From an uncultured Acidobacteriota bacterium (GTDB taxonomy: Bacteria > Acidobacteriota > JAAYUB01), in contig CAYPNP010000003.1 of assembly GCA_964412195.1 (NCBI GenBank), forward strand, positions 160,386 through 224,385: 64,000 bases of DNA, given 5' to 3'. Below, piece by piece: positions 6,398-56,785 of the stretch (its first letter is position 1; every line of letters begins with the position of its first letter). The notes under the pieces were generated by a model. The model worked only from the letters and a program-made list of their open reading frames with translations. It ran no database searches and was not told the origin of the DNA. Made by a program: the position numbers and the translations under genes.

Positions 6398-7315
6398 TCA
6401 CCGATTCACCGACAACATCTCCCGCAGCGCCGGCTCCAGCTCCGGCCAGCGGAAGGCGTAGCCGGATTCCAGCAGGCGGCGGGGGCGGACATGCGCCCCG
6501 CCCAGCAGGGCCTCGTCGGCCATCTCGCCGAACAGGAGCCGCAGGGCGAAGGCGGGCACCGGCAGGGCCGCCGGCCGGCGCAGCACCCGGGCGAGGGTCC
6601 GGGTCCATTTGGTGTTGTCGGGGATTTCCGGCGCCACGGCGTTGACCGGTCCGTCCATCCCTTCCTGGCGGATCAAGTGTAGCACGATGCGCGGGATTTC
6701 CTCGAGCGCGATCCAGGGGACGGGCTGTCGGCCGTCGCCGATCCGCCCGCCCAGCCCCAGGCGGAAGACCGGCAGCAGGCGTGCCAGCGCGCCGCCGGCC
6801 GGACTCAGCACCATGCCGAAGCGCAGGTGAATTACCCGGATACCTGCGTCCCGGGCCGGATCGGCGGCGGTTTCCCAGGCGCGGCAGACGCGGGACAGGA
6901 ATCCCTCGCCGGGACGGCTGCCCTCGTCGACAGGCTCCTCCGGCGGGCGGCTGCCATAATAGCCGACGGCGGAGGCGGTCAGGAACAGGCGCGGCGGTTC
7001 CCGGAGCCGGAGCAGTGCCTGGGTGAGGGTCTGGGTGCCGGCGACGCGGCTGTGGAGGATCTCGTCCTTGTACCGCGCGCTCCAGCGGCGGCCGGCGATG
7101 CCGGCGCCGGCGAGGTGGATCACCACGTCGGCACCTTCCAACCGGTCGGGCTCCAGCCGGCCCTGGCCGGGGTCCCATGGGATCTCGTCCTGGGCGGCGG
7201 TCTCGGCGGGGCGGCGCACCAGCTTCACGCAGTGGATAGCTGGATCGAGGCCCGGCAGTTCCCGGACGAGGCAGGAGCCGATCAGGCCGGACGCGCCCGA
7301 AATCACGATCCGCAT
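6398..7315 (-). CDS. TIGR01777/YfcH-family NAD-dependent epimerase/dehydratase-fold protein (DUF1731 C-terminus)
   Basis: MRIVISGASGLIGSCL Rossmann motif; YfcH-like length and C-terminal region. Confidence 0.75.
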   Translation of the reverse strand: MRIVISGASGLIGSCLVRELPGLDPAIHCVKLVRRPAETAAQDEIPWDPGQGRLEPDRLEGADVVIHLAGAGIAGRRWSARYKDEILHSRVAGTQTLTQALLRLREPPRLFLTASAVGYYGSRPPEEPVDEGSRPGEGFLSRVCRAWETAADPARDAGIRVIHLRFGMVLSPAGGALARLLPVFRLGLGGRIGDGRQPVPWIALEEIPRIVLHLIRQEGMDGPVNAVAPEIPDNTKWTRTLARVLRRPAALPVPAFALRLLFGEMADEALLGGAHVRPRRLLESGYAFRWPELEPALREMLSVNR

Positions 7316-7512
7316 GACGACCTCCGGCAATCAAACCGCGAAGGCACAAAGGCCGGATAGGCGAACCAAACGCTGAACGTCCAACGTCGAACTCAGAACG
7401 CCGAACAGGAAAAACCGAATCCTAGGCAACAGCCCGGATTGACTTCGACGATCAGCGTTCGATGTTCAATGCTTGACGTTCGGATCCCAGTTCCGGTCAA
7501 ACAGGCCGGCAA

Positions 7513-7674
7513 TCACTCTACTGGTTCGAATTGATCCTTGCCCACGCCGCAGTCGGGGCAGACCCAGTCGTCGGGGAGCTTCTCGAAGGGCGTGCCCGGG
7601 GGAACGCCGTTGTCGGGGTCGCCGACGGCCGGATCGTAGACATAATTGCAGATGATGCAGACGTACTTCTTCAT
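7513..7674 (-). CDS. rubredoxin
   Basis: Hand-translated 53-aa [56 protein letters not shown] with CxxC...CPDCG iron site; RBS GGAGAAAGG; below the 60-aa cutoff of the ORF track. Confidence 0.85.
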
Positions 7675-7695
7675 CGGATTATCCTTTCTCCGGGC

Positions 7696-8907
7696 TCACG
7701 CCGGGGGGCAGATTTCCGCCAGCCGCCGAGCCAGCTCCAGTCCGAGGGCGTAGCACTTGGCGAGGTCATCCTCGTTGGGCACGTAGACGGCCATCACTCC
7801 GTCGGAGACCGGCTCTACGCCCATGTCCTTGAGCAATTCGTTGATCTGGGGCACCGCCTTGGGCGCCCAGCCGTAGGAACCGAACGCGGCTCCGAGGCGC
7901 CCCTTCGGCTTGAGCCCGCGCAGGTAGGTCAGCACGTCGGCCACAGTCGGGAACATCTGGCTGTTGAGGGTAGGCGAGCCCACCGCCAGGACGCCGGCCT
8001 CCAGCATCTCGGTGGCCACCTCGCTGCGGTGGCAGCCGCCCAGCGGCATCACCACCGGTTTGGCGCCACCCGCCTTGAGGCCGTCGGCGACCGCCCGGGC
8101 CATCCGGTCGGTGCTGCCCCACATCGTGTCGAACACCACCACCGCCTTCCGCGTGGGCGCCTGGGCGGCCCAGCGGGCGTAAAGCTCGAGGATCCGCTTC
8201 GGGTTGGCGCGCCACACCGGGCCGTGGTCCGGGGCGATCCGGCGGAAGTCGAGGCCGAGCTGGCCGACCTTTTCCAGCAGCTTCTGGACCAGGTTGGAGT
8301 ACGGCAGGAGGATGTTGGCGTAGTATTTGGCCGCTTCGTACTCCAGGACCCATGGGTCGACCTCGTCGTCGAAGCGCTGGCTGGTGGCCAGGTGCATGCC
8401 GAAGGCGTCCTGAGAGAAGAGCAGCTTCTCCTGTTCGAGGTAGGCGATCATGCTGTCGGGCCAGTGGAGCATGCGGGTCTCGTGGAAGAGCAGGGCGGTG
8501 TCTCCCAGCGGGATCCGGGTCCCATCCGCCACCGCCTCCACCGGCAGGTCGGGCCGGAAATGCTTCTGCAGCGCCTTGACGCCCATGGGCGAGGCGAAGA
8601 CCTTGTCGGGCCGGATGATGTCCATCACCTCCGGCAGGCAGCCGGTGTGGTCCAGCTCGGAATGGTTGGACACGATGTAGCGGACCAGCCGTGGATCGAC
8701 CACGGAGGCGATCCTGGCCAGCAGCTCCTCTTGGAATGGCTTCTTGACCGTGTCGATGAGGGTGACCGGGTCGCCCATCACCAGGAATGCGTTGTAGGTG
8801 GTGCCGCGCTCCGTCGCGTATCCGTGGAAGTCCCGGATGGCCCAGTCGATGGCGCCCACCCAGTAGACCCGGTCCGTGACGGGGATGGCTTTGAATACCT
8901 TTTCCAT
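7696..8907 (-). CDS. flavodiiron protein (FprA/ROO type: metallo-beta-lactamase-like diiron domain plus flavodoxin domain)
   Basis: 403 aa; diiron His/Asp ligand motif HSELDH-type; C-terminal flavodoxin-like region; RBS GGAGAG. Confidence 0.85.
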   Translation of the reverse strand: MEKVFKAIPVTDRVYWVGAIDWAIRDFHGYATERGTTYNAFLVMGDPVTLIDTVKKPFQEELLARIASVVDPRLVRYIVSNHSELDHTGCLPEVMDIIRPDKVFASPMGVKALQKHFRPDLPVEAVADGTRIPLGDTALLFHETRMLHWPDSMIAYLEQEKLLFSQDAFGMHLATSQRFDDEVDPWVLEYEAAKYYANILLPYSNLVQKLLEKVGQLGLDFRRIAPDHGPVWRANPKRILELYARWAAQAPTRKAVVVFDTMWGSTDRMARAVADGLKAGGAKPVVMPLGGCHRSEVATEMLEAGVLAVGSPTLNSQMFPTVADVLTYLRGLKPKGRLGAAFGSYGWAPKAVPQINELLKDMGVEPVSDGVMAVYVPNEDDLAKCYALGLELARRLAEICPPA

Positions 8908-9035
8908 TTCTTCAATACTCTCCGTTCAATTCACACACTCGACCGGGACGGACATCGGAAATCGGATTTCGGACATCGGCCTTTTACAGCCGATCCCCGA
9001 TGTCCGAAGTCCGATGTCCGACAATCGTGCCCGGG

Positions 9036-9581
9036 TTATGCCATCGCCGTGCCGCCGTCAAATCCCGTGCGCTCCTGCTCCCGGAACCAGGCGGCGGGAT
9101 CGGCCAGGAAGGCCTTCATCTCGGACAGGGCGGTGTGATGGCCCGTCTCTTCCTCGATCATCCGCTTGATGAATCCCTTTTCCACCTCCTCGGTGGCGGC
9201 CTTCAGCTGGTCCTCGTAGAAGCGGACCGAATTGAACTCGAAGGTGATGCCCACGTCGAGGGCCTCGAGGTCGCCGGTGCCGGCCTGGATGTTGTGGCCC
9301 TGGGCCGCGGCCAGGTCGCGGAACACCTTGCCGAGGTCGGCGTGGCCTTCGCCGAAGCTCTTCCACTCCTCGGACCAGGTGTGCTGGGTGTTCAGCTGCT
9401 CGTAGATCTTCATAATCCGCTGGACGTGGATGTCCTCGTCCTTCTTCAACATGGTGAATATCTTCACCCCGAGCTGGTTCTTGCAGGTGGTGATGGCCTT
9501 CTCGTAAAACGCCTTGCCCTTCTCCTCCATCTCGAGGGCGGTGCTCAGCATGGCCAGGGCGCGGTTGAAATGATGCGTCAT
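9036..9581 (-). CDS. rubrerythrin-family ferritin-like diiron protein (erythrin domain only), paralog D
   Basis: Two ExxH pairs (EEKGKAFY/DEDIH and EFNSVRFY/EETGHH) give a four-helix-bundle diiron signature. Confidence 0.7.
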   Translation of the reverse strand: MTHHFNRALAMLSTALEMEEKGKAFYEKAITTCKNQLGVKIFTMLKKDEDIHVQRIMKIYEQLNTQHTWSEEWKSFGEGHADLGKVFRDLAAAQGHNIQAGTGDLEALDVGITFEFNSVRFYEDQLKAATEEVEKGFIKRMIEEETGHHTALSEMKAFLADPAAWFREQERTGFDGGTAMA

Positions 9582-9593
9582 GGGATGACCTCC

Positions 9594-10094
9594 TTATGGT
9601 TTTTCCAGTTTCATCAACTCTTCGATCAGGGTGGTGATGTGGGACATCTCCTCCTGGATGATCTTGTCGACTTTGCCTCGGCCCCGGTCGACGGGGACCA
9701 TCTCCTTGATCCCGACATAGAAGGCGATGGACTCCTTCTCCAGGCCGATGGCCGTCTCGAGGATCTGGGCGAGGGATGTGCCGCGCGAGATCGTCTTGCC
9801 GGGGTCCTTGTCCGCGCGGAAGACGTGCTTGTCCACCCAGGCGCGGAGATACCTCAGCGCTTCCTGCCCGGGGTCGTTCAGCGTCTTGAACATGGCGTCG
9901 CCGATGAGGGACTTCCGGAGCGCCTGGAAGGTCATCTCGTGGACGTCCTCCATCGCGGCGAGCTTCTGCAGCAACTCGTTGGCCTGCGCCCCGACGGACT
10001 GGGCGGCGGCGGCCCGGTAGAACTTCGCGCCGTTGCGCTCGAATTGCTCGGCCATTTCAAAGATCTCGTCGGCATTCAGCAAACCGCTCATCAT
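9594..10094 (-). CDS. rubrerythrin-family ferritin-like diiron protein, paralog C
   Basis: ExxH pairs (ERNGAKFY/MEDVHE, LEKESIAFY/EEMSH); start MMSGLL chosen instead of the long N-terminal extension in the ORF track. Confidence 0.7.
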   Translation of the reverse strand: MMSGLLNADEIFEMAEQFERNGAKFYRAAAAQSVGAQANELLQKLAAMEDVHEMTFQALRKSLIGDAMFKTLNDPGQEALRYLRAWVDKHVFRADKDPGKTISRGTSLAQILETAIGLEKESIAFYVGIKEMVPVDRGRGKVDKIIQEEMSHITTLIEELMKLEKP

Positions 10095-10188
10095 AGCCTC
10101 CTTGTGCCAGGGTGCCGGGAACCGGCTGCCGGATCCCCTGGCCGGTTCCCGCCGCCCGAACGGGGCGGGCCGCTTCCCGGAAAGGTCT

Positions 10189-10641
10189 TCAGTTTTCGGG
10201 CTGGACAATCCGGTCGTACTCCAGCTCGAAACGCAGCTTGTGCTTGGCTTCCTCCTGGGCCAGCGCCAGCAGGGTCCGGCCAAGGGCCGGATCGGCGGCG
10301 CGATCGGCCATGTCGGTGTACAGCCGGTAGGCGGCCTTTTCCATCTTCATGGCCAGCACCAGGGCGTCCCCATAGGTCATATCCGGGGACGGATCGCCGA
10401 CGACGGTGTAGTCGGCGATCTTCAGGTCGAGGATCTTCTCGCGGGAGGGCTCCAGCGCCTGCCCCGCCTTGATCTGGAGCAGCTTGGCCTTGTGGCCCAG
10501 CTCCTCCCGGGCGAAATCCTCGAATGCCTGTTTCATCCAGGGTCGGTCCATTCTTTCGGCCAGCCCGTTGTAGAACACGGCCGAGGCGAGTTCCTTGCCG
10601 ATGGCGAAGTCCAGGATCTCGTCGACGGAGTTGAAATTCAT
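10189..10641 (-). CDS. rubrerythrin-family ferritin-like diiron protein, paralog B
   Basis: ExxH pairs (ELASAVFY/EELGHK, MEKAAYRLY/EEAKHK). Confidence 0.7.
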   Translation of the reverse strand: MNFNSVDEILDFAIGKELASAVFYNGLAERMDRPWMKQAFEDFAREELGHKAKLLQIKAGQALEPSREKILDLKIADYTVVGDPSPDMTYGDALVLAMKMEKAAYRLYTDMADRAADPALGRTLLALAQEEAKHKLRFELEYDRIVQPEN

Positions 10642-10653
10642 GGCGGCCCCGGG

Positions 10654-11151
10654 CTAGTACGGCCAGAACTGGTTGTCGTTCCAAACGCTTTCCTGCAGCG
10701 CCCGGTCCAGGGAGGCCAGCAGGTGGAGGTGGGTTTTCTCCCAATCGGCCAGCCACTGGTAAATTTCCTTCTCGACGGGATCGCCGGCGGTGGTCGCGCG
10801 GTCGGAGTAGAACCGCACGGCGCGGTCTTCCATGGCCATCGCGGCCGAGATCGCCGCCGCCTCGTAGCCCGCGGCGGCCACCTTGCCGCGGATCTCCCCG
10901 CTGATGACGGCCTCGGCGAAATCCTCGCCCTTGACGTGCTTGACGGGCTCAAACTGACCGCTTTTGCCCAGGCTCTTCATCTGGCGGGAGAGGATGTCGA
11001 TGTGGCTGTCCTCTTCCGCCGACATGGTCTGGAACACTTTTTTGATCGGGGCGCTGGTGGCTTCGCGGGCGTTGTGCTCGTAGAAGGCCTTGCCTTTCAT
11101 TTCCAGCAGGATCGCGCCTTTGAGGATCTCCATTGCCTTCGACTTGTCCAT
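10654..11151 (-). CDS. rubrerythrin-family ferritin-like diiron protein, paralog A
   Basis: ExxH pairs (EMKGKAFY/EEDSH, MEDRAVRFY/EKTHLH); start MDKSKAMEIL. Confidence 0.7.
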   Translation of the reverse strand: MDKSKAMEILKGAILLEMKGKAFYEHNAREATSAPIKKVFQTMSAEEDSHIDILSRQMKSLGKSGQFEPVKHVKGEDFAEAVISGEIRGKVAAAGYEAAAISAAMAMEDRAVRFYSDRATTAGDPVEKEIYQWLADWEKTHLHLLASLDRALQESVWNDNQFWPY

Positions 11152-11219
11152 GTGCCGTGCTCCTCTGCAAGTATTTGGGCCATTATAGCAGAGGCCGGCG
11201 CGGAGAGCCAACCGGGAAT

Positions 11220-11460
11220 TGCGGGCCGCGGCGTGCCCGGTAATTGATGCCCAATGACCGATGACCGGTGAACGATGACCGGCGACGGGCCATGCCGACT
11301 GCGAAATGGCATGCCTGCTTCATCGATATCGGAGTCGGTTTTCGCAGTCGATTCCAAGATCGGTTCCTGACGGCGATACCGATGCCTCCGGTCCCGAGCC
11401 CCCAGACCCGAGCCCCCAGATCCGATGTCCGACATCCGAATTCCGATGTCCGCACCGGTT
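11220..11460. repeat. intergenic heptamer arrays (CCGGTGA/CCGATGA family and CCGATGT/CCGAAGT family)
   Basis: ccaatgaccgatgaccggtgaacgatgaccggcgacggg and cccagatccgatgtccgacatccgaattccgatgtccg. Confidence 0.7.
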
Positions 11461-11505
11461 GCGGCGGAGCGGGGAATCCGCTACCATGGGGGCGGGAGCG
11501 GCACG

Positions 11506-12789
11506 ATGGAACACGACGAGATCCTGCACTGGCTGACAGAGACCGGCGAAGCGGCGCTGGAGCAGCTCTGGCGCCGGGCCGACGAAGTCCGGCGCCGGCA
11601 CGTCGGCGACGCGGTCCACCTGCGCGGGCTGGTGGAGTTCTCCAACCACTGCGCCCGGCAGTGCGGGTACTGCGGCATCCGGGCCGGCAACACCCGGCTG
11701 GCGCGCTACCGGATGAGCGCCGACGAGATCCTGGAGTGCGCCCGGCTGGCCGCCCGGCTGGGCTACGGCACGGTCGTCCTGCAGTCCGGCGAGGACCCCG
11801 GCACCCGGCGCGCCTGGATGGCGGACGTGGTCCGGCGGATCCGCGCGGAAACGGGGCTGGCGGTGACGCTCAGCCTGGGTGAGCGCAGCGACGCCGACCT
11901 GCGGGCGTGGCGCGAGGCCGGCGCCGGCCGGTACCTCCTGCGGTTCGAGACCTCCAACCCGGTTCTCTTCCGGAAGATCCACCCGCCCCGGCGCGGCCGC
12001 GGGAGCGACCGGATCGCCCTGCTGCGTCGGTTGCGAGGCCTCGGCTACGAGGTCGGCAGCGGGGCCATGATCGGTATCCCCGGCCAGACGTACGGTGACC
12101 TCGCCCGGGACCTCGAGCTGTTCAGGGAGCTGGACCTGGACATGATCGGAGTCGGGCCGTTCCTCCCTCATCCTGCTACGCCTCTGGGTCAACCAGAGGA
12201 CGCGGGGACGGGGGGACGGGGAGACGGGGGGACGAGCCGGATCGAACATCGAACATCGAACATTGAACATCGAACATCGAACTCAATCCGCGATCCGCAC
12301 TCCGCAAACCGGGAACTCACCACAAAGGCACAAAGAACACAAAGACAAGATTGGGATTCCAATTCGAAATCCGCGATCCGCAATCCGAGATCCGATGTCC
12401 GAGATCCGATGTCCGAAGATCGCACTCCGCATTCCGCACTCCGCACTCCGCATGATTCCGAACAGGTTCCCAACTCGGAATTGATGACCTACAAGGTGGT
12501 GGCGCTGGCCCGGCTGATCTGTCCGGACGCCAACATCCCCAGCACCACGGCGCTGGCCACGGTCAACCGGGAGTCCGGACGCGAGCTGGGTCTGCAGCGG
12601 GGCGCCAATGTCGTCATGCCCAACCTGACGCCGCCGCGCTACCGGGCCGGTTACGAAATCTACCCGGCCAAGGCCTGCCTCCAGGAAACGCCGGAGCAAT
12701 GCCACGGCTGCCTGCTGGCGCGCATCGCGTCCATCGGCCGGACCGTGGGCGAGGGGCCGGGGGAGTCTCCCCGATTCAGGAAGCGGTGA
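11506..12789 (+). CDS. radical SAM protein of the HydE/BioB/ThiH family carrying an in-frame insertion of about 97 codons of heptamer-repeat origin (function may be disrupted)
   Basis: EFSNHCARQCGYCGIR CX3CX2C radical SAM motif; HydE-like C-terminus ICPDANIPSTTALAT...GANVVMPNLTP; start MEHDEIL chosen because the first 27 codons of the ORF lie in repeat DNA. Confidence 0.65.
   Translation: MEHDEILHWLTETGEAALEQLWRRADEVRRRHVGDAVHLRGLVEFSNHCARQCGYCGIRAGNTRLARYRMSADEILECARLAARLGYGTVVLQSGEDPGTRRAWMADVVRRIRAETGLAVTLSLGERSDADLRAWREAGAGRYLLRFETSNPVLFRKIHPPRRGRGSDRIALLRRLRGLGYEVGSGAMIGIPGQTYGDLARDLELFRELDLDMIGVGPFLPHPATPLGQPEDAGTGGRGDGGTSRIEHRTSNIEHRTSNSIRDPHSANRELTTKAQRTQRQDWDSNSKSAIRNPRSDVRDPMSEDRTPHSALRTPHDSEQVPNSELMTYKVVALARLICPDANIPSTTALATVNRESGRELGLQRGANVVMPNLTPPRYRAGYEIYPAKACLQETPEQCHGCLLARIASIGRTVGEGPGESPRFRKR
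12190..12480. repeat. intragenic repeat module: CGAACAT, CCGAGAT/CCGATGT, CACAAAG and CACTCCG heptamer arrays inserted in frame in the radical SAM gene
   Basis: atcgaacatcgaacatcgaacattgaacatcgaacatcgaac translates as IEHRTSNIEHRTSN; ccgagatccgatgtccgagatccgatgtccga; cgcactccgcattccgcactccgcactccgca. Confidence 0.8.
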
Positions 12790-12794
12790 GACAC

Positions 12795-12945
12795 TGGATC
12801 GTCTCTCTCGTGTGAATTGATTCAATTGCGGATTGCGGATTGCGAATTGAACGGATTGCGGATTTCGGATTGCGGATTGAAACCTAGGCTTGTCTTTGTG
12901 TCCTTTGTGCCTTCGTGGTGAGTTCCCGGCTTGCGGCTTGAGGTT
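12795..12945. repeat. GCGGATT heptamer array plus CTTTGTG array, inverted relative to the intragenic module
   Basis: ttgcggattgcggattgcgaattgaacggattgcggatttcggattgcggatt; 12893-12930 is the reverse complement of 12311-12350. Confidence 0.7.
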
Positions 12946-13856: not shown

Positions 13857-15230
13857 CTAGCCCCGTCGCGGCCGGAATCCGTACTTCTCCATCTTGTAGC
13901 GCAGGTTCTTCTCGCTGATGCCCAGCGTCTCGGCGGCCCGGGTCTGGACCTGGCCGGCGTCCTCCAGCGCCTGCCGGATGCGGGCCTTCTCCAGGGCCTC
14001 CACGGCCTCCGGCAGGGGCATCTGCCGGATCTGCTCCTCCAGCGCATCGCCCGCCGCCGGCTTCAGACCGGGGAAATCCTCCGGCTGCAGCAGGGAGGAA
14101 CGGGTCAGCACCATCGCCCGCTCGACCAGGTTCTCCAGCTCGCGGACGTTGCCGGGGAAGTCGAATCCCATCAGCAGGTGGAGGGCGTCCCGGCTGATGC
14201 CCGTGACCGGGCCGGGGGCGCTGCGGGCGTACTTGCGGATGAAATGGTCCACCAGGGCGGGGATGTCTTCCTTGCGCTCCCGCAGCGGGGGCAGGGCCAG
14301 GGTGATGATGTTCAGGCGGTAATACAGGTCGCTGCGGAAGCGGCCCTCGGCGGCCAGGCGGGCCAGGTCCTGGTTGGTGGCGGTGATGAGGCGGAAGTCC
14401 GCCGGGATGTCCTGGTTGCTGCCGAGGCGCTGTATGATCCGCTCCTGGAGCACCCGCAGCAGCTTGACCTGCAGCCCGGCGGAGATCTCGCCGACCTCGT
14501 CCAGGAACAGCGTCCCCCCGGCGGCTTCCTCGAAACGCCCGATCCGGCGGCGGTCGGCGCCGGTGAACGCCCCCCTTTCGTGGCCGAAGAGCTCGCTTTC
14601 CAGCAGATTCTCGTTGAGGGCGGCGCAGTTCACCGCCACCATCCGGCCGCCGGCGCGGGCCGAGGCCTGGTGGATCGCCCGGGCCACCAGCTCCTTGCCG
14701 GTACCGCTCTCGCCCAGGATCAGGACGGTCGCGCTGGATTGGGCCGCCCGCAGGGCCAGGTTGACCAGCTCCTCCATGGCGTGGCTCTGGAAGAGGATCC
14801 CATCGAAACCGGCGCGGGGGGCGAGCTGCTCCTTGAGGCGGACGTTTTCCTCCAGGATGGTCTTCTGGCGGAGCAGGTTGCGGACCTTGATCTCCACCTC
14901 GTCCAGGTCGAGGGGCTTGGTCAGGTAGTCGGCGGCGCCCTTCTTCATGATCTCCACGGCCCGCTGCACCGAGCTGAAGGCGGTGAACAGCACGAAGGGA
15001 GTCTGTGGGTACTCATGACGGACGAACTCGAGGATCTCCTCGCCGGTCCCGTCCCCCAAGCGGAAGTCCGAGAGCACCAGGTCGGTCCGCTCCTCCTTCA
15101 GCTGAGCCTTGGCTTCGGCCACGGAGGCGGCGCCGCGGGCCCGGTAGCCCAGGTCGCGCAGGTGATCCACCAGCAGTCCGCGCTGGTTCGCTTCATCGTC
15201 CACCACGAGCAGGTTGAAGTCGCTTTCCAT
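13857..15230 (-). CDS. sigma54-dependent response regulator (NtrC/AtoC family: REC plus AAA+ plus Fis HTH)
   Basis: LLVVDDE receiver; GESGTGKE Walker A; GAFTGA sigma54-contact motif; C-terminal Fis-type HTH. Confidence 0.9.
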   Translation of the reverse strand: MESDFNLLVVDDEANQRGLLVDHLRDLGYRARGAASVAEAKAQLKEERTDLVLSDFRLGDGTGEEILEFVRHEYPQTPFVLFTAFSSVQRAVEIMKKGAADYLTKPLDLDEVEIKVRNLLRQKTILEENVRLKEQLAPRAGFDGILFQSHAMEELVNLALRAAQSSATVLILGESGTGKELVARAIHQASARAGGRMVAVNCAALNENLLESELFGHERGAFTGADRRRIGRFEEAAGGTLFLDEVGEISAGLQVKLLRVLQERIIQRLGSNQDIPADFRLITATNQDLARLAAEGRFRSDLYYRLNIITLALPPLRERKEDIPALVDHFIRKYARSAPGPVTGISRDALHLLMGFDFPGNVRELENLVERAMVLTRSSLLQPEDFPGLKPAAGDALEEQIRQMPLPEAVEALEKARIRQALEDAGQVQTRAAETLGISEKNLRYKMEKYGFRPRRG

Positions 15231-15236
15231 CCGGAA

Positions 15237-17333
15237 CTATCCTTCTCCGTCGATTTGAGTCGCCGGCGCCGCCGGAGTTCTTTCTCCGGGCGGATCCTCC
15301 AGGAGGTCGGAGGCAGGGACCGTCACCGTGACCACGGCCCCGCCGCCGGGCCGGTTGGCCAGGGCCAGCTGCCAGCCGTGGGCCTTCAAGATTTCCGCAC
15401 TCAGGCTCAGACCGAGCCCCGTCCCCTGGCGGCGCGTGGTGTAGAACGGTTCCAGGGCCCGCTGCAGCGCCTCGGGGGTGAACCCCGGCCCCGTGTCGGC
15501 CACCTCCAGACGCAGGCGGCTGTCTTCCCTCACCCACCCCAGGGTGATCTCGCCGCCGCCGTCGAGGTTGTCGATGGCGTTCTGAACGAGGTTGATCAGC
15601 ACCCGGAAGAGCTGGTCCTCGTCGGCTGAAAGTCGCAAGGAAACCTCCGCCGATTCCACCTGGAGGCGGATCCCGAGGCGTTCTGCAGTTTCGATGAACA
15701 TCGCCCGGACGCGCTCCAGCAGGGGCGGAAGCGCCACCGGCTCCCGGTGGAGCTGGACCGGCCGGGCGTAGATCAGGAGGTCCTCCACCAGCCGGTTGAG
15801 CCGGCGGGACTCCTCGTCCAGGACCGCCAGGGCGTTGCGGTTCCGCTCGTCCGCCACCGGATCCAGCCGCCGGCGCAACGTCTGCACCGACATGGAAAGG
15901 GCGTTGAGCGGGTTGCGGATCTCGTGGGCCACCGCCGCCACCAGCCGGCCGAGCGCCGCCAGGTGCTCCTCCCGGTGGCTTCTGTTTTCCAGCGCCTTCT
16001 GGCGGGTGACGTCCCGCAGCAGCAGCAGGCGCGCCGGCGGACCTCCGGGTTCTTCCGGGAACGCCTGGCAGCTGGCCAGGAAGAGCCGGTCCCGCCAGGA
16101 CAGGTAGACCGCCTCCGCCGGCGCCGCGGCGTCCTCCGACCGGCAGTCTTCCAAGGCGCCGGTCAGGGCGTGCGGCAGGGCGTCGCCGGCGCGGAGGCCC
16201 AGCTCGGACTCGGCCCGCGGGTTGGCCCGGAGGATGCGCCCGGTCTCATCGACCACCAGCAGGGACTCCACCATCCGCTGGGTGATCCGGTCGGACATGG
16301 ACAGGCTGCGGGCGTAGCGCGAGCGCAGGAACCGGTAGTTCTGGGCCGTGAAAATCAGGCCGAAGAGGATCCCGCCGCCGAGCAGGAGCGCCAGGCTCAT
16401 CCCGGCGTCCCGCCAGGCCAGCTCCCGCAGCCGGTCGTGGTAAAACGTGAGGTCCACGCCCACCCGGAACAGCGCCCGGTACCCCTCCTCCAGCTCGAAC
16501 GGCACCGCCCCTTCCAGCACCTCCCGGCCGCGATGGGTGGTGAAGCGGAAGGTCCGGCGGTTTTCGGCGAAAGCCTCGCGAAGCTCGGGCACGCTGCCGA
16601 TGGAGGCGACCTCCTCCACGCCCGGGGTGGCGCTGATGGGGCCGTCCTCGTCCTGGATGACCGCGTAGACGATGGAAGGGTTGCCGGCCAGGCGGGCCAG
16701 GGCCGGGCCCAGGCCGACCCGCTGCCGGTAGCGGTCGAGCTGCTCCGCCGGGGCAGTCACGACGATGGCGCCACCGCCCGGCCGCGCCACGGCGACGGCG
16801 AACCGGCGGCCTCCTCCGAACCGGGCTTCGCGAAAACCGATGACCAGGTCCGGGACGGTCCCGTCCAGGATGGGGCCGAGGATGTTCCGCCGCTCGGCCG
16901 TTTCCTCGCCGGATCCCGCGGGCGGGGGATCTCCGCTGGACAGGACGCGTCGGCCGTCCCGGTCGAAGAGATGAATCCGCTGGAGGTCGAACCGGGCCGC
17001 GACCGCTCCCAGCCGGGAGGCGGACAGGGGGCCTTCCCCGTCGAGGTGGGCGACGAAGCGGGCGGAAGCGAGCAGCCGGCGGGCGATCTCTTCCTGCAGC
17101 GCGTCGTAGGCGCCCAGGGAGGCCGTGGCGCTTTGGATCAGGGGCTCGGTCAGAACGGCCACGTTGTCCTGGAGGAGCCGCCGCAGTTCCCGCTCCGTGT
17201 TGCGGTAGTCGGAATACCCGTTCCAGGCCAGCAGCAGGGCGAGCGCCAGAAGGCCGGCCGAGGGGAGGATCCACCCGGCCGGGCGGGAGCCGTTCCCCCG
17301 CGGCGTCAGTGGGCGCTGGGTTCGGGCTGCCAT
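15237..17333 (-). CDS. sensor histidine kinase with about 290-aa periplasmic domain, PAS, HisKA and HATPase_c
   Basis: H-box AHEIRNPLN; N and G boxes (LVQNAIDN, GTGLGLS); two transmembrane segments; start MAARTQRPL is uncertain and the ORF-track start at 17960 is rejected. Confidence 0.75.
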   Translation of the reverse strand: MAARTQRPLTPRGNGSRPAGWILPSAGLLALALLLAWNGYSDYRNTERELRRLLQDNVAVLTEPLIQSATASLGAYDALQEEIARRLLASARFVAHLDGEGPLSASRLGAVAARFDLQRIHLFDRDGRRVLSSGDPPPAGSGEETAERRNILGPILDGTVPDLVIGFREARFGGGRRFAVAVARPGGGAIVVTAPAEQLDRYRQRVGLGPALARLAGNPSIVYAVIQDEDGPISATPGVEEVASIGSVPELREAFAENRRTFRFTTHRGREVLEGAVPFELEEGYRALFRVGVDLTFYHDRLRELAWRDAGMSLALLLGGGILFGLIFTAQNYRFLRSRYARSLSMSDRITQRMVESLLVVDETGRILRANPRAESELGLRAGDALPHALTGALEDCRSEDAAAPAEAVYLSWRDRLFLASCQAFPEEPGGPPARLLLLRDVTRQKALENRSHREEHLAALGRLVAAVAHEIRNPLNALSMSVQTLRRRLDPVADERNRNALAVLDEESRRLNRLVEDLLIYARPVQLHREPVALPPLLERVRAMFIETAERLGIRLQVESAEVSLRLSADEDQLFRVLINLVQNAIDNLDGGGEITLGWVREDSRLRLEVADTGPGFTPEALQRALEPFYTTRRQGTGLGLSLSAEILKAHGWQLALANRPGGGAVVTVTVPASDLLEDPPGERTPAAPATQIDGEG

Positions 17334-17902
17334 CGGATGGTTTCCGGGATCGAGTAGTCCGCGGGGAGGTCGGCCTTGCCGAGGCCGGCTTGCAGCAGCT
17401 TGCCCTCCAGGCGCAGGTTCTGGCCGCCGCCCTGGAGCAGGTACCACCGGATCAGGCTGCCGCCCGTGCGGGACCAGGTGAAGAAGATGGTCAGCCGCCG
17501 GCCGTCCTCGAGGGAGTACTGGGCCGGGGCAGACACGGGGAACTTGCCGTCCAGTTCCTTCTGCTGCTCCTTGGGAAGGCCGGGAATGTCCGACGCTTTC
17601 CTGACCAGCCGGGTTTCCGAATCCGGCGGCAGGCGGAGGGCCGTGTTCATGCTGCCACGGAGGGATTCCGCAAGCTTCTGGAGCTGGCGCTGCTGGTGGC
17701 GGGCCTGGAACCGGTCGTCGATGCCGTCGCCGTCCTGGTCCACGTAAGGCTGGGAGTCCCAGCCGCCCCGGTACTGCCCCCCGCCGTGCGAACCGCCCCC
17801 CCCGCCCCCGCCCCCGCGGCGCCCCTGGCCCGGAAGGTCCGCCACGGCCGTCCCGAGCAGGGCCACCATCACCAGGATTTGAGGGAAACTTCGTCTCATC
17901 AT
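17306..17902 (-). CDS. periplasmic accessory protein of the two-component system (DUF4390-like?)
   Basis: Signal peptide MMRRSFPQILVMVALLGTAVA; Gly-rich linker; overlaps the kinase start. Confidence 0.5.
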   Translation of the reverse strand: MMRRSFPQILVMVALLGTAVADLPGQGRRGGGGGGGGSHGGGQYRGGWDSQPYVDQDGDGIDDRFQARHQQRQLQKLAESLRGSMNTALRLPPDSETRLVRKASDIPGLPKEQQKELDGKFPVSAPAQYSLEDGRRLTIFFTWSRTGGSLIRWYLLQGGGQNLRLEGKLLQAGLGKADLPADYSIPETIRWQPEPSAH

Positions 17903-18248
17903 GCCTCCCCGATCTTACCATTGAATGGATTCGCAATAAAGGTGCCAGTCTGGAGTCCATCCGCGCCGCCGGTGCGCGACGGCGGAAATCCCCGTCCGGC
18001 GGAAGGTTCGGCGGGGGCGGTCGGGCGCTGGAGGACCTACGGCGGGTTCCGTTTCGGCAAAATGGACGAATGCGGGGGGCAGAAAAGTCGAATTTTCATC
18101 TCATTTAAAATCAATTAAATACGGGGTTGATGCGGGCGAACGCACGGTCGCCGTGCGATTTTGCCCCCCGATCCGGCCTCTATCGGGCGATGGCGCAACT
18201 AACTCGTATATTTCTAAATTTCAATGAATTAAGTTGTATATGACAGAT

Positions 18249-38699: not shown

Positions 38700-38900
38700 T
38701 TCAAACGCTCGAAGAGGGGCTCGGGACTCGGGGCTCGGGATTCGAGGCTTGGGTCTGGGTGCATCGTATTCCAAACCCAAACCCTGCATATCGATCTCCG
38801 CATACTCAACTCCGACATATTCCAACCCCAACCTCCAACCCCGAGCCCCGAGTCCCGAGCCCCGAACCCCGAGTCCCGAGACCCGCCTCGACTCCTCATG
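38700..38900. repeat. CCCGAGC/CCCGAGT heptamer arrays in inverted orientation around an AT-richer core
   Basis: gggctcgggactcggggctcgggattcgagg ... ccccgagccccgagtcccgagccccgaaccccgagtcccgagacc. Confidence 0.75.
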
Positions 38901-50792: not shown

Positions 50793-51448
50793 TGCGCAGG
50801 AAGACTCTTACCCTATGGCGGACGGTGTGGCTGGCGGCCCTGCTGGCGGCGGGCGGTGGCGCGGCGGGCGCGGCCGGGCTGTCGCTGCGGGACCGGGTCG
50901 TGGCCGACGTGGCGGGGGAGCCCGTCACCCTCCGCCAGGTGCTCATCCTGGCCAGCCTGGAAGCCGGCCGGAAGGTCGACCCGTCGGAAGGGGGGCTCGT
51001 GGCGGCCGCGGTCCAGCGGGAGATCACCCAGGTCATCATCATGCGGGACATCGCCCGGAATCCGTCCTACGAGGAGGAGAAACCCGACGAGGCCGCGATG
51101 CGGCAAGCCCTCGAGCAGAAGTGCGGCGGGCCGGAGGCATTGCGCCGGCTGCAGGAGGAGCTCCAGCTGAAAGACGAGACGCTCGAGAGCTTCCTGCAGC
51201 GGCAGGCCCTGGCGGTCGCCTTTGTCCGGCTGCATTTCAATCCGTTCGTCTATGTGTCCGAGGAGGAGGCCCGGAAATACTATGCGGAGGTGTTCCTGCC
51301 CCGCCTCGGCGCCGGCGCCGCGCCGCCGGACTTTGAGAGCGTGCAGGCGAAAATCGTGGAGATCCTGCAGCAGCGCAAGATCAACGCCGAGTTCGACCAG
51401 TGGCTGGAGCGGCAGAGGAAGGAACTTCGAGTCAAGATCATTGAATGA
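50792..51448 (+). CDS. periplasmic protein downstream of bamA (SurA-N/Skp-like chaperone?)
   Basis: ATGA overlap with the bamA stop; signal peptide; helical; position equivalent to skp in Omp85 operons. Confidence 0.45.
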   Translation: MRRKTLTLWRTVWLAALLAAGGGAAGAAGLSLRDRVVADVAGEPVTLRQVLILASLEAGRKVDPSEGGLVAAAVQREITQVIIMRDIARNPSYEEEKPDEAAMRQALEQKCGGPEALRRLQEELQLKDETLESFLQRQALAVAFVRLHFNPFVYVSEEEARKYYAEVFLPRLGAGAAPPDFESVQAKIVEILQQRKINAEFDQWLERQRKELRVKIIE

Positions 51449-51560
51449 TTGCGAATTTCGAATTGCGAATTGCGGATTGTGGATTGCGGATTGCGGATTT
51501 TAAATTTCAAATCCTCAAACTCTTTTTCTCTGAATCCACCCCGTCCACCCGTCCACCCCG
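51449..51560. repeat. GCGAATT/GCGGATT heptamer array plus CCACCCG array
   Basis: tgcgaatttcgaattgcgaattgcggattgtggattgcggattgcggatt; ccaccccgtccacccgtccaccccgtccactctgtccacccggtcc. Confidence 0.75.
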
Positions 51561-55439: not shown

Positions 55440-55630
55440 CCATTCAACGCAGATCCACGCTGATCTATTATGATTAATTAGGATCATTTAAAAGGTCTGG
55501 ATCATAAATGATCTTAAAAAGTCTGCGTCCATCTGCGTCGAATTCCCCTTTGCGTCCTTCGCGCCTTTGCGGTTCGATTCGAAATTCGCAATTCGCAATC
55601 CGCAATCCGCAATCCGCAATCCGCAATCCC
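55440..55630 (-). mobile_element. composite MITE-like dispersed element, copy 2 (inverted relative to copy 1)
   Basis: ttcaacgcagatccacgctgatctattatgattaattaggatcatttaaaaggtctggatcataaatgatcttaaaaagtctgcgtccatctgcgtcgaat followed by cgcaatccgcaatccgcaatccgcaatcc. Confidence 0.75.
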
Positions 55631-55633
55631 CAA

Positions 55634-56785
55634 TCAGAGGGAGCGCTCTAAAATCTCTGCCAATTCAGCCGGGGTCAGCGCCACCGGATTGCCCTGCATG
55701 CTGCTGGCCACCCGGGCGCGGTCCACCAGCGTGGGGATGTCGGTGGCGGTGACTCCGTAGGAGCGCAGGGGCGGGATCCGCAGGTCCCGGCACAGGCCGT
55801 CCACCCAGGCGATGGCCTTGGCGGCGCCGGGCGCCTGGCCGGTCAGGAGCCGGCCGAGCGAATCCATCCGGCGCAAGGCGTCGCTGCCGGGATCCCGCTC
55901 CCGCAGCGCCCGGTGGTTGGCTTCCAGCACCCGCGGCAGCAGCCGGGCGCACGCGGCGCCGTGGGGCGCCGGAAACATGCCGCCGAGGGGCGCCGCCAGG
56001 CCGTGCACCGCCCCCAGCCGGGCGTTGGCCAGGGCCATCCCGCCCTCGAGGCTCGCCAGGGAGAGGTCCTCGCGGGCGGCCGCGTCGTAACCGTCGAGGC
56101 AGGCGCGGCGCAGGCTGCGGGACACCCGGGGGATGCCGTCGCGGCACAGCCCGTCGACGAGCGGATTGGGGCGGTTGCAGAGGAACGGCTCCACCAGTTG
56201 AGTCAGGGCGTCTAGGCCGGTGCTGGCGGTGATCTCCGGGGGCAGGCCGTAGGTCAGTTCGGGGTCCACCAGGGCCACCCGGGGCAGCATCAGCGGGCTG
56301 CGCAGGCTGACCTTGACTTTGTGCTCCGGCGAGGCAAGCACGGCGTTGCGGGTGGCTTCCGATCCGGTGCCAGCGGTGGTCGGGACGGCAATCAGGGGAA
56401 CGGATGGCTTGACCAGCGGCCGGCCCTGGCCGACGACTTCGAGATACTCGAGCGGATCGCCGCCGTTGGCCAGCAGGGCCGCGACCGCTTTGGCCGTGTC
56501 CAGCGCGCTGCCGCCGCCGAAGCCGATGACCAGGTCGGTCCCTTCCGCGTCGGCCTGCGCCAGCGCCGTCCGGACCGTGTTCACCGACGGCTCGCCGGCG
56601 GACGAGAACACGGCGGCGGGCAGGCCGGCCTCCCGGAGCAGGGCCAGGAGCCGGCCGGCCCGGTCCGGCGAGGCGCCCGTGACCACCAGCGGCTTCCGCC
56701 CGAGGGAAGCGGCCAGCGGCCCGATTTCCTTCAAAGAGCCGGCCCCGAACAGGATCCGTTGCGCGGTGGCGAATTCGAATGGCAT
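55634..56785 (-). CDS. iron-containing (group III) alcohol dehydrogenase
   Basis: GGGSALDTAK NAD-binding motif; conserved His metal ligands; 383 aa. Confidence 0.85.
   Translation of the reverse strand: MPFEFATAQRILFGAGSLKEIGPLAASLGRKPLVVTGASPDRAGRLLALLREAGLPAAVFSSAGEPSVNTVRTALAQADAEGTDLVIGFGGGSALDTAKAVAALLANGGDPLEYLEVVGQGRPLVKPSVPLIAVPTTAGTGSEATRNAVLASPEHKVKVSLRSPLMLPRVALVDPELTYGLPPEITASTGLDALTQLVEPFLCNRPNPLVDGLCRDGIPRVSRSLRRACLDGYDAAAREDLSLASLEGGMALANARLGAVHGLAAPLGGMFPAPHGAACARLLPRVLEANHRALRERDPGSDALRRMDSLGRLLTGQAPGAAKAIAWVDGLCRDLRIPPLRSYGVTATDIPTLVDRARVASSMQGNPVALTPAELAEILERSL

Follow-up and report, generated by a model that had tools for sequence, protein, structure and literature searches.

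A probable oxidative-stress operon of an uncultured Acidobacteriota bacterium that unites four old erythrin subfamilies with a flavodiiron protein and a rubredoxin

The locus analysed here runs from position 11151 to position 7513 on the minus strand of a 64,000-nucleotide stretch (the window) of contig CAYPNP010000003.1, from an uncultured Acidobacteriota bacterium. It is made of six close-set open reading frames (ORFs), read from the sequence and its translations, which encode in this order four erythrin-only diiron proteins (E1, E2, E3 and E4), a flavodiiron protein (FDP) and a rubredoxin (Rd). It is very probably an oxidative-stress operon, an assignment that follows from the repeated and independent linkage of its genes to stress genes in other genomes and not from the Pfam name alone. 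The four erythrins are ancient paralogues assembled in one operon and not the product of a local amplification, and we tentatively propose that they act as rubredoxin-fed reductases of peroxide or O2, that is, as 'split' rubrerythrins. Operons combining Rd, FDP and rubrerythrin-family genes are already known in anaerobes, and the locus is no new kind of system; what is unusual here is the replacement of the classical rubrerythrin by members of four old, uncharacterised erythrin subfamilies.

A sequence-only reading of this DNA had placed a six-gene oxidative-stress locus on this strand, and all six ORFs are present:

11151..10654, minus strand: E1, 165-aa erythrin-only diiron protein (PF02915, 63.2 bits)
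10641..10189, minus strand: E2, 150-aa erythrin-only diiron protein, 12 nt past E1 (PF02915, 58.0 bits)
10094..9594, minus strand: E3, 166-aa erythrin-only diiron protein (PF02915, 30.6 bits)
9581..9036, minus strand: E4, 181-aa erythrin-only diiron protein, 12 nt past E3 (PF02915, 34.8 bits)
8907..7696, minus strand: FDP, class A, 403 aa (ODP and Flavodoxin_1 domains)
7674..7513, minus strand: Rd, 53 aa, 21 nt past the FDP gene (PF00301, NF045768)

The same six genes were called independently on metagenome contigs of the same population (Logan assemblies SRR12489243, SRR12489244 and SRR12489248), and no additional E paralogue lies elsewhere within the 64 kb. The true start of E3 is the ATGATG that follows AAGGAGG, the upstream TTG of a 229-aa ORF being a mechanical extension.

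The encoded proteins

The four E proteins all exceed the gathering cut-off of the Pfam family PF02915 (Rubrerythrin), set at 22.8 bits, with scores of 30.6-63.2 bits (E 5e-7 to 4e-17). In a four-way alignment, where their pairwise identity is 19-25%, the six ligands of the diiron centre, Glu in helix A, ExxH in helix B, Glu in helix C and ExxH in helix D, are invariant, as are the two Tyr residues found seven residues past the first and third Glu (E-x6-Y), and the distance from Glu to ExxH never departs from 30 residues in either half of any of the four. These eight positions are 92-100% conserved within the homologue set of every family: those of E1 (E17, E47/H50, E108, E138/H141 and Y24/Y115) are found in 119-120 of 120 homologues, and the ligands are kept in 120-131 of 131 for E2, 119-120 of 120 for E3 and 75-76 of 76 sequences for E4. 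Selection on the diiron ligands is strict in every subfamily. The sequence-only reading, which had seen four diiron four-helix-bundle proteins with two ExxH pairs each and had named a loss of the ligands on careful alignment as its weak point, is borne out by the PF02915 matches and by this conservation. AlphaFold predicts for E1 (pLDDT 86.9) and E4 (pLDDT 87.2) a four-helix bundle whose B-C crossover is long, to which the E4 model adds a C-terminal helix.

Each subfamily also has features of its own. E1 ends in W-x-D-N-x-F-W-P, and a tail W-x-D-x-x-F-W-P after helix D (about 10654-10690) is invariant in its family and modelled with moderate confidence (pLDDT 66-78); the E4 family carries a different conserved tail, DP..W.xE.E...DG. 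Confined to the E3 family is a conserved ExxE in helix A (E16/E19, about 10038-10049; E16 in 113 of 120 homologues), possibly an additional carboxylate of the metal site, and the Glu of helix D is directly followed by Met (residues 149-152, about 9639-9650) in 88 of the 120.

The subfamilies are large and old. The homologue sets hold at least 298 sequences for E1, 1198 for E3, 75 for E4 and 685 cluster representatives at E<=1e-10 for E2, and profile-profile comparison finds the four families mutually homologous (hhalign probability 94-99%). In a neighbour-joining tree with 100 bootstraps, in which classical rubrerythrin and Escherichia coli bacterioferritin sequences serve as rough outgroups only, each E protein of the window falls inside the clade of its own family, with bootstrap values of 100 (E1), 71 (E2), 100 (E3) and 100 (E4). 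Identity between the families in the tree set is 17-22%, no higher than identity to the solved proteins PF1190 and TM1526 (18-28%); E3 clusters with TM1526 (bootstrap 73) and E2 with PF1190 (bootstrap 55). Because of this low identity and the four separate clades, the E genes are not recent duplicates, as had been suspected from their divergence.

The solved proteins closest to E1-E4 in sequence are TM1526 (1vjx), PF1190 (2fzf) and the 'COG1633' protein 2oh3, with E-values from 1.7e-6 to 6.7e-4. The E1 profile reaches a best E of 8e-7 against Protein Data Bank (PDB) sequences; the best solved relative is PF1190/2fzf for E2 (E 7e-4), TM1526/1vjx for E3 (E 5.6e-6) and TM1526 for E4, both by sequence (E 1.7e-6) and by fold. 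Encapsulated ferritins, symerythrin and bacterioferritin give weaker matches. Owing to the single-domain bundle, to the motif E-x6-Y/ExxH occurring twice and to this closest similarity, we place E1-E4, on their sequences, in the TM1526/PF1190 (archaeoferritin-type, COG1633-type) branch of PF02915, where they form four old, separate subfamilies. No rubredoxin-like Cys4 domain is found in any of them, neither RUBY_RBDX nor Rubredoxin being matched and Cys counts being 0, 0, 0 and 1 for E1 to E4. The Pfam Ferritin family PF00210 gives no match to E1-E4 at E<=0.01, and the cut-offs for encapsulin cargo (EncFtn/EncB) are missed (29.1 against 90 bits for EncB_fam, 23.1 against 125 for TIGR04535). 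In bacterioferritin a haem-binding Met stands right after the Glu of helix B; the corresponding residue in the E families is D, E, L, V and others, never mainly Met.

FDP consists of an ODP domain (residues 39-229) and a Flavodoxin_1 domain (257-387), with nothing further in its 403 aa, and its motifs HSELDH, HWPDS, SQDAFG and APDHGP, read from the translation, fit the ligand pattern H-x-E-x-D-H...H...D...H. It has the make-up of a canonical class-A flavodiiron protein (metallo-beta-lactamase-like and flavodoxin domains). Its scores lie below the NCBIfam NorV equivalog cut-offs (387.3 against 635 bits for PRK11921, 304.4 against 711 for PRK05452), so that either O2 or NO may be its preferred substrate. 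Rd scores 90.1 bits with PF00301 (cut-off 23) and 107.1 bits with the equivalog NF045768 (cut-off 90), and carries the two pairs CIIC and CPDC. The domain and equivalog matches thus agree with the earlier assignment of an FDP followed by a 53-aa rubredoxin.

Stress-gene linkage, proposed role and alternatives

E1 was scanned against 185,579 species-representative genomes, in which it has more than 500 relatives (KSB1, Acidobacteriota, Bacteroidales, Desulfobacterales, Chlorobiota and others), and the gene contexts of the best 80 loci were read. Only two of these 80, both from Acidobacteriota metagenome-assembled genomes (57-70% identity), share the cluster. The series of operon versions was completed by metagenome contigs, the compared loci of relatives being designated L005, L006, L084, L087, L090, L094-L098 and L100:

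E1-E2-E3-E4-FDP-Rd: the window and L084 (E1 identity 85%)
E1-E2-Tpx-E3-E4-FDP-Rd: L087 (E1 identity 65%)
E1-E2-Tpx-E4-CMD-FDP-Rd: L005
E1-E2-Tpx-E4-CMD-Rd: L006, FDP-free and partly syntenic with the window
E1-E2-CMD-FDP-Rd: L090

The operon is modular, with E1-E2 at its head and Rd at its tail, whereas thiol peroxidase (Tpx), the AhpD-like CMD protein (CMD), E3, E4 and FDP are exchangeable. L006 keeps Rd with no FDP within 14.5 kb.

Orthologues of E2, E3 and E4 are linked to stress genes elsewhere as well. Those of E4 (52-58% identity) lie in large islands together with an FDP-like protein, a flavin reductase, Rd, two classical rubrerythrins, another erythrin, desulfoferrodoxin and peroxiredoxin, MsrAB being present at the L096/L097 locus only; in L094-L097 the E4 orthologue has no E1, E2 or E3 orthologue with it and stands beside a distant E3-like erythrin only (26-30% identity). 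Orthologues of E2 (57%) and E3 (51%) accompany rubrerythrin, thioredoxin, Tpx, multihaem cytochromes, desulfoferrodoxin, ferritin and Fe-SOD. The variant operons and the E2, E3 and E4 orthologues support the oxidative-stress assignment already made by the sequence-only reading, and of its two suggestions for the erythrins, a graded detoxification battery or a hetero-oligomeric assembly, they favour the first: Tpx and the AhpD-like CMD are inserted in the relatives' operons, and the orthologues sit in islands with SOR, Prx, SOD, rubrerythrin and ferritin. Its claim of rarity holds for the exact layout of four erythrins in a row, which is confined to a small clade; it does not hold for multi-erythrin stress clusters, which recur in metagenomic anaerobes.

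Two side observations concern these islands. A conserved protein of 133-160 aa precedes the E4 orthologue in every island of the Desulfobacterota type (L094 6551-6952, L095 6470-6952, L096/L097 6560-6973); searches for a Pfam family gave it no firm one, only a weak, sub-threshold PNPOx_N match. In L098 (4483-5492) and L100 (4492-5492) a classical ferritin gene precedes the E3 orthologue by 12 nt, in a run Dfx-ferritin-E3-SOD, an adjacency that hints that E3-type erythrins may work with ferritin.

The model we propose is that of an operon defending a strictly or mostly anaerobic bacterium against O2 and the products of its reduction. Rd, recharged by an oxidoreductase encoded elsewhere, would pass electrons to FDP, which would reduce O2 to water (or NO to N2O); we infer this feeding of FDP by Rd from the textbook pairing of the two proteins. 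The same Rd would also act in trans as electron donor to the diiron centres of the erythrins, where H2O2, and perhaps O2 or organic peroxides as well, would be reduced to water; the rubredoxin module of such 'split' rubrerythrins would be a protein of its own. A graded battery would result from differences among the four subfamilies in substrate, affinity or partner. This explanation as a whole, from the single operon to the graded battery, is the best we can offer and seems to us quite possible. Its central step, the feeding of the erythrins by Rd, is favoured mainly because L006 keeps Rd without FDP: the remaining members of that operon, Tpx and CMD, are thiol-based enzymes, so that Rd probably serves the erythrins there. 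Feeding in trans has a precedent in ferriperoxin, a peroxidase of the classical lineage that has no rubredoxin domain and takes its electrons from a separate reductase (PMC3317640).

Several observations weigh against this model. The operon itself has no gene for an NAD(P)H:rubredoxin oxidoreductase. There is no Rd within 7 kb of the E1 orthologue in 78 of the 80 genomes, where E1 is solitary among housekeeping genes whose synteny is lineage-specific and uninformative on function, and no free Rd within 5 kb of E3 in the contexts of L098 and L100. The check for PerR, Fur or OxyR boxes upstream of E1 that the sequence-only reading had called for, made by eye on the aligned upstream regions of six loci, revealed no recognisable operator of these types; what the regions have in common is limited to the extended -10 element and the short A-rich stretch that follows. 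Among the PDB matches there is no classical rubrerythrin chain at E<=1 for E1 and E2 or at E<=5 for E3 and E4. Classical rubrerythrin, such as that of Desulfovibrio vulgaris, has a seventh carboxylate ligand in the ExxE of helix C, which swaps with a His on redox change; in all four E families this Glu at +3 is missing and is Ala or Ser. The earlier label 'rubrerythrin-like' therefore stands as far as membership of PF02915 goes and fails in that the proteins belong to the TM1526/PF1190 branch and are missing two classical hallmarks. Finally, the six-ligand E-x6-Y/ExxH site is of the type found in bacterioferritin and in the Pyrococcus furiosus archaeoferritin, a ferroxidase (PMC3401498).

This last point leads to the alternative that the erythrins are archaeoferritin-like ferroxidases, which we consider rather unlikely. 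They would oxidise free Fe(II) under O2 or H2O2, hold the Fe(III) and possibly assemble on iron loading, thereby removing Fenton-active iron, while the oxidants would be dealt with by FDP, Rd and Tpx, and Rd would serve FDP alone or aid a later reductive release of iron. Indeed, the nearest solved relatives are PF1190 (2fzf) and TM1526, and PF1190 is more than 30% identical to the P. furiosus archaeoferritin PF1196, with an identical set of E-x6-Y/ExxH motifs (PMC3401498). PF1196, the only relative to have been characterised biochemically, is a monomeric ferroxidase that forms ferritin-like oligomers as iron is stored (PMC3401498). The absence of the rubrerythrin-specific seventh Glu from the site fits this reading, as do the position of E3 orthologues behind a ferritin gene in L098 and L100 and the match of the E1 model to bacterioferritins and Dps-like proteins, which is as good as that to 2fzf. 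On the other hand, a similarity to PF1190 and TM1526 of 18-28%, equal to that among E1-E4 themselves, makes for a weak transfer of function, a pure ferroxidase would need no electron donor although L006 retains Rd without FDP, and it is not evident why one operon should encode four distinct iron sinks. When the E1 and E4 models are compared by fold with the PDB, generic ferritin-like proteins are returned (TM-score 0.55-0.69, all E-values above 0.001), and these do not discriminate between the two activities, both of which have precedent among minimal erythrins, in ferriperoxin and PF1196.

The second suggestion of the sequence-only reading, a hetero-oligomeric ferritin-like assembly built from E1-E4 or from the pairs E1/E2 and E3/E4, is in our view improbable. 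E1 and E2 are always neighbours at the operon head in this clade, the E3-E4 gap is only 9-12 nt wherever both genes are present, and hetero-oligomeric bacterioferritins exist (PDB 9iig; PMC6529640). The E1-E2 spacing varies from 12 to about 98 nt, however, and every subfamily is found without the others: in 78 of 80 genomes E1 is solitary, L005 and L006 have E4 but no E3 orthologue, L094-L097 have E4 but neither E1 nor E2, and the L090 operon has neither E3 nor E4. An obligatory complex of four subunits is unlikely for this reason, and the earlier proposal is not supported in that form; pairwise E1/E2 or E3/E4 complexes may nonetheless form. An in-frame E3-E4 fusion of 351 aa also speaks for an assembly, but it is single and comes from a contig of 1.5 kb, so that it may be a sequencing error. 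This contig (P0319, NCBI, 1468 bp, from a close relative; about window 9036-10094) has a Leu codon at the place of the E3 stop codon and the 12-nt spacer in frame (...MKLEKSLGGHPMTHHF...), as a natural fusion or through a sequencing error.

A further, quite improbable reading would make of the erythrins a reversible, Rd-gated iron sink of archaeoferritin-like subunits, possibly arranged as E1/E2 and E3/E4 hetero-pairs. On exposure to O2, labile Fe(II) would be oxidised and sequestered with consumption of O2 or H2O2, and on return to anoxia Rd would reduce and release the iron. If true, this would be a new and widespread iron and oxidant buffer of anaerobes without conventional ferritins in the operon, built from four uncharacterised subfamilies of dozens (E4) to more than 1000 (E3) sequences each.

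It is very improbable that the E genes encode diiron oxygenases or hydroxylases (of the MiaE, Coq7 or aldehyde-deformylating type) or unrelated proteins that lie by chance near FDP-Rd. A weak match to the MiaE-like 5ux1 (E 0.071), also present among the fold matches, and the ferritin-like fold common to many oxygenases are opposed by the scores of E1-E4, all above the PF02915 cut-off, by the linkage of E2, E3 and E4 to peroxidase, SOR and SOD genes in several unrelated lineages, and by the minimal bundles of 150-181 aa without a substrate-binding extension. A recent tandem amplification or an array of decaying pseudogenes, to which only the tandem arrangement would point, is refuted by the conserved ligands and the family tree, with paralogue identities of 17-25%, a large family from other lineages for each gene (bootstrap 71-100) and intact ORFs with a GC content at third codon positions of 0.84-0.91, usual for genes of this region.

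The transcription unit and the surrounding DNA

Beyond the genes, three features of the locus bear on its expression:

11182..11211, minus strand: sigma-70-type promoter with extended -10 element, TTGGCT-18 nt-TATAAT, about 30 nt 5' of the E1 start
10095..10188, minus strand: E2-E3 intergenic region, 94 nt, GC-rich, containing the E3 ribosome-binding site AAGGAGG
8942..9027, no strand assigned: heptamer-repeat palindrome (CGGACAT-type units) within the E4-FDP spacer, predicted to form a long RNA hairpin, without T tract

The sigma-70 site at 11211..11182, whose -10 element is extended by TG, is the sole promoter-like site in 7300-11500. The element TGCTATAAT is kept upstream of E1, at an equal distance from the start codon, in L084, L087 and L006. 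The intergenic gaps measure, in operon order, 12, 94, 12, 128 and 21 nt, and no terminator-like site is found on the minus strand between the genes or anywhere in 7300-11500. With a single promoter conserved in relatives and no terminator-like site between them, the six genes would form one operon served by this extended -10 promoter. A CAAATAATTTG palindrome upstream is present in L005 alone.

The E2-E3 spacer was considered as a terminator or attenuator and rejected, its predicted fold (-49 kcal/mol) being close to that of shuffled sequences (z -0.99) and without T tract. The E4-FDP spacer of 128 nt, described as repeat-filled by the sequence-only reading, does hold two inverted runs of heptamer repeats (8949-8980 and 8989-9020), predicted to fold into a hairpin of -62.5 kcal/mol (z -5.3); as a terminator it was likewise rejected for want of a T tract. 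A comparable palindrome occupies the corresponding place in L084, the 85% relative, and is missing from L087. Because of this distribution, and because the same type of repeat is scattered across the window, the palindrome would be a young, lineage-specific insertion and not a conserved regulatory part; it would at most tune the relative mRNA levels of the two halves of the operon.

A sigma-54 promoter was also rejected: the candidate TGGCCC-N-TTGCA overlaps the -10 element, its spacing is one base over, and L084, L087 and L006 do not share it. Some 2.7 kb away lie, on the minus strand, a gene for a sigma-54-dependent response regulator (13857-15230) and a large ORF read as its histidine kinase (15237-17960), the latter assignment resting on a fragment in L085 alone; this pair adjoins the radical SAM gene both in the window and in L084 (L084 1-2304). 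Since no conserved sigma-54 promoter is found, a regulatory link from this response regulator to the erythrin operon is not supported. An Rfam scan of the whole window gave no match.

The Rd gene is followed by a gene of the DUF1731/epimerase family (SDR-type) in the window (6398-7330, minus strand), in L084 (7986-8912) and in L087 (5383-6243), which is absent from the L005, L006 and L090 versions. On the other side, a radical SAM gene (11425-12789, plus strand) is divergent from E1. It carries, between its conserved halves, an in-frame insert of about 70-85 aa derived from heptamer repeats (about residues 262-345; IEHRTSNIEHRTSN..., SAIRNPRSDVRDP...), and its 72% identical orthologue in L084 (2432-3643, minus strand) has a shorter, diverged insert at the corresponding place. 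The insert could mean that repeats have invaded a coding region and are tolerated there, or that the gene is mis-joined.

The intergenic DNA of the window is dotted with tandem arrays of such heptamers, in 4-9 copies, whose unit varies from site to site and many of which are inverted pairs, that is, potential long hairpins. Examples are found at 2327-2364/2453-2490, 8949-8979/8997-9021, 12241-12282, 12825-12879, 21111-21151/21195-21227, 25153-25184/25291-25321, 35917-35947/35999-36035, 38839-38885, 51448-51499 and 55583-55635. They resemble the STRR heptamer repeats of cyanobacteria.

Relation to known systems and wider meaning

The closest known counterparts of the locus are the Rd/FDP/rubrerythrin stress operons of anaerobes, for example rbo-rub-roo of Desulfovibrio and the rd-fprA-dsr type of Clostridium. 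A further example is the rubrerythrin locus of C. difficile (bioRxiv 10.1101/2024.09.17.613384). The likeness lies in an Rd co-transcribed with a class-A FDP and with PF02915 four-helix-bundle proteins, to which peroxiredoxin or SOR is often added. The operon of the window differs from them in that four erythrin-only subfamilies, without Cys4 domain or seventh Glu, replace the classical rubrerythrin, and in that no SOR or PerR gene is found in or beside it.

As proteins, E1-E4 share with PF1196, PF1190 (2FZF) and TM1526 (1VJX) their minimal length, the double E-x6-Y/ExxH motif and the lack of a rubredoxin domain, and find there their best sequence and fold matches. The identity is only 18-28%, however, no linkage to Rd or FDP is known for the archaeal and Thermotoga proteins, E1 and E4 have C-terminal extensions of their own, and ferroxidase activity has been demonstrated for PF1196 only. 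The 'aerobic-type' rubrerythrins ferriperoxin and sulerythrin are likewise erythrin-only (PMC3317640, PMC5114695), but they belong to the classical rubrerythrin lineage, come mostly from aerobes, and the PDB sequence searches with E1-E4 gave no match to any of them. With bacterioferritin, including its hetero-oligomeric forms, for which tandem genes of distinct subunits are known, the E proteins have in common the six-ligand diiron site and the fold of the E1 model; they differ from it by the absence of a PF00210 match and of the haem Met, and by an identity of only 13-18% to the E. coli sequence used as a rough outgroup.

In conclusion, the series of operon variants ties four erythrin subfamilies to oxidative-stress clusters across several lineages and, in one clade, finds them wired to Rd. 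The defence against O2 in uncultured anaerobes, among them Acidobacteriota, Desulfobacterota, KSB1 and Bacteroidales, is mostly inferred from the genes of classical rubrerythrin, SOR and FDP, while these four large and old subfamilies, usually annotated as 'ferritin family protein' or 'rubrerythrin', recur in defence clusters. The locus thereby offers an entry point to the question of peroxidase or ferroxidase activity for a large and neglected group of proteins. Furthermore, its four paralogues, brought together in one operon, form a natural set for the study of how small changes around an identical six-ligand site tune its reactivity.

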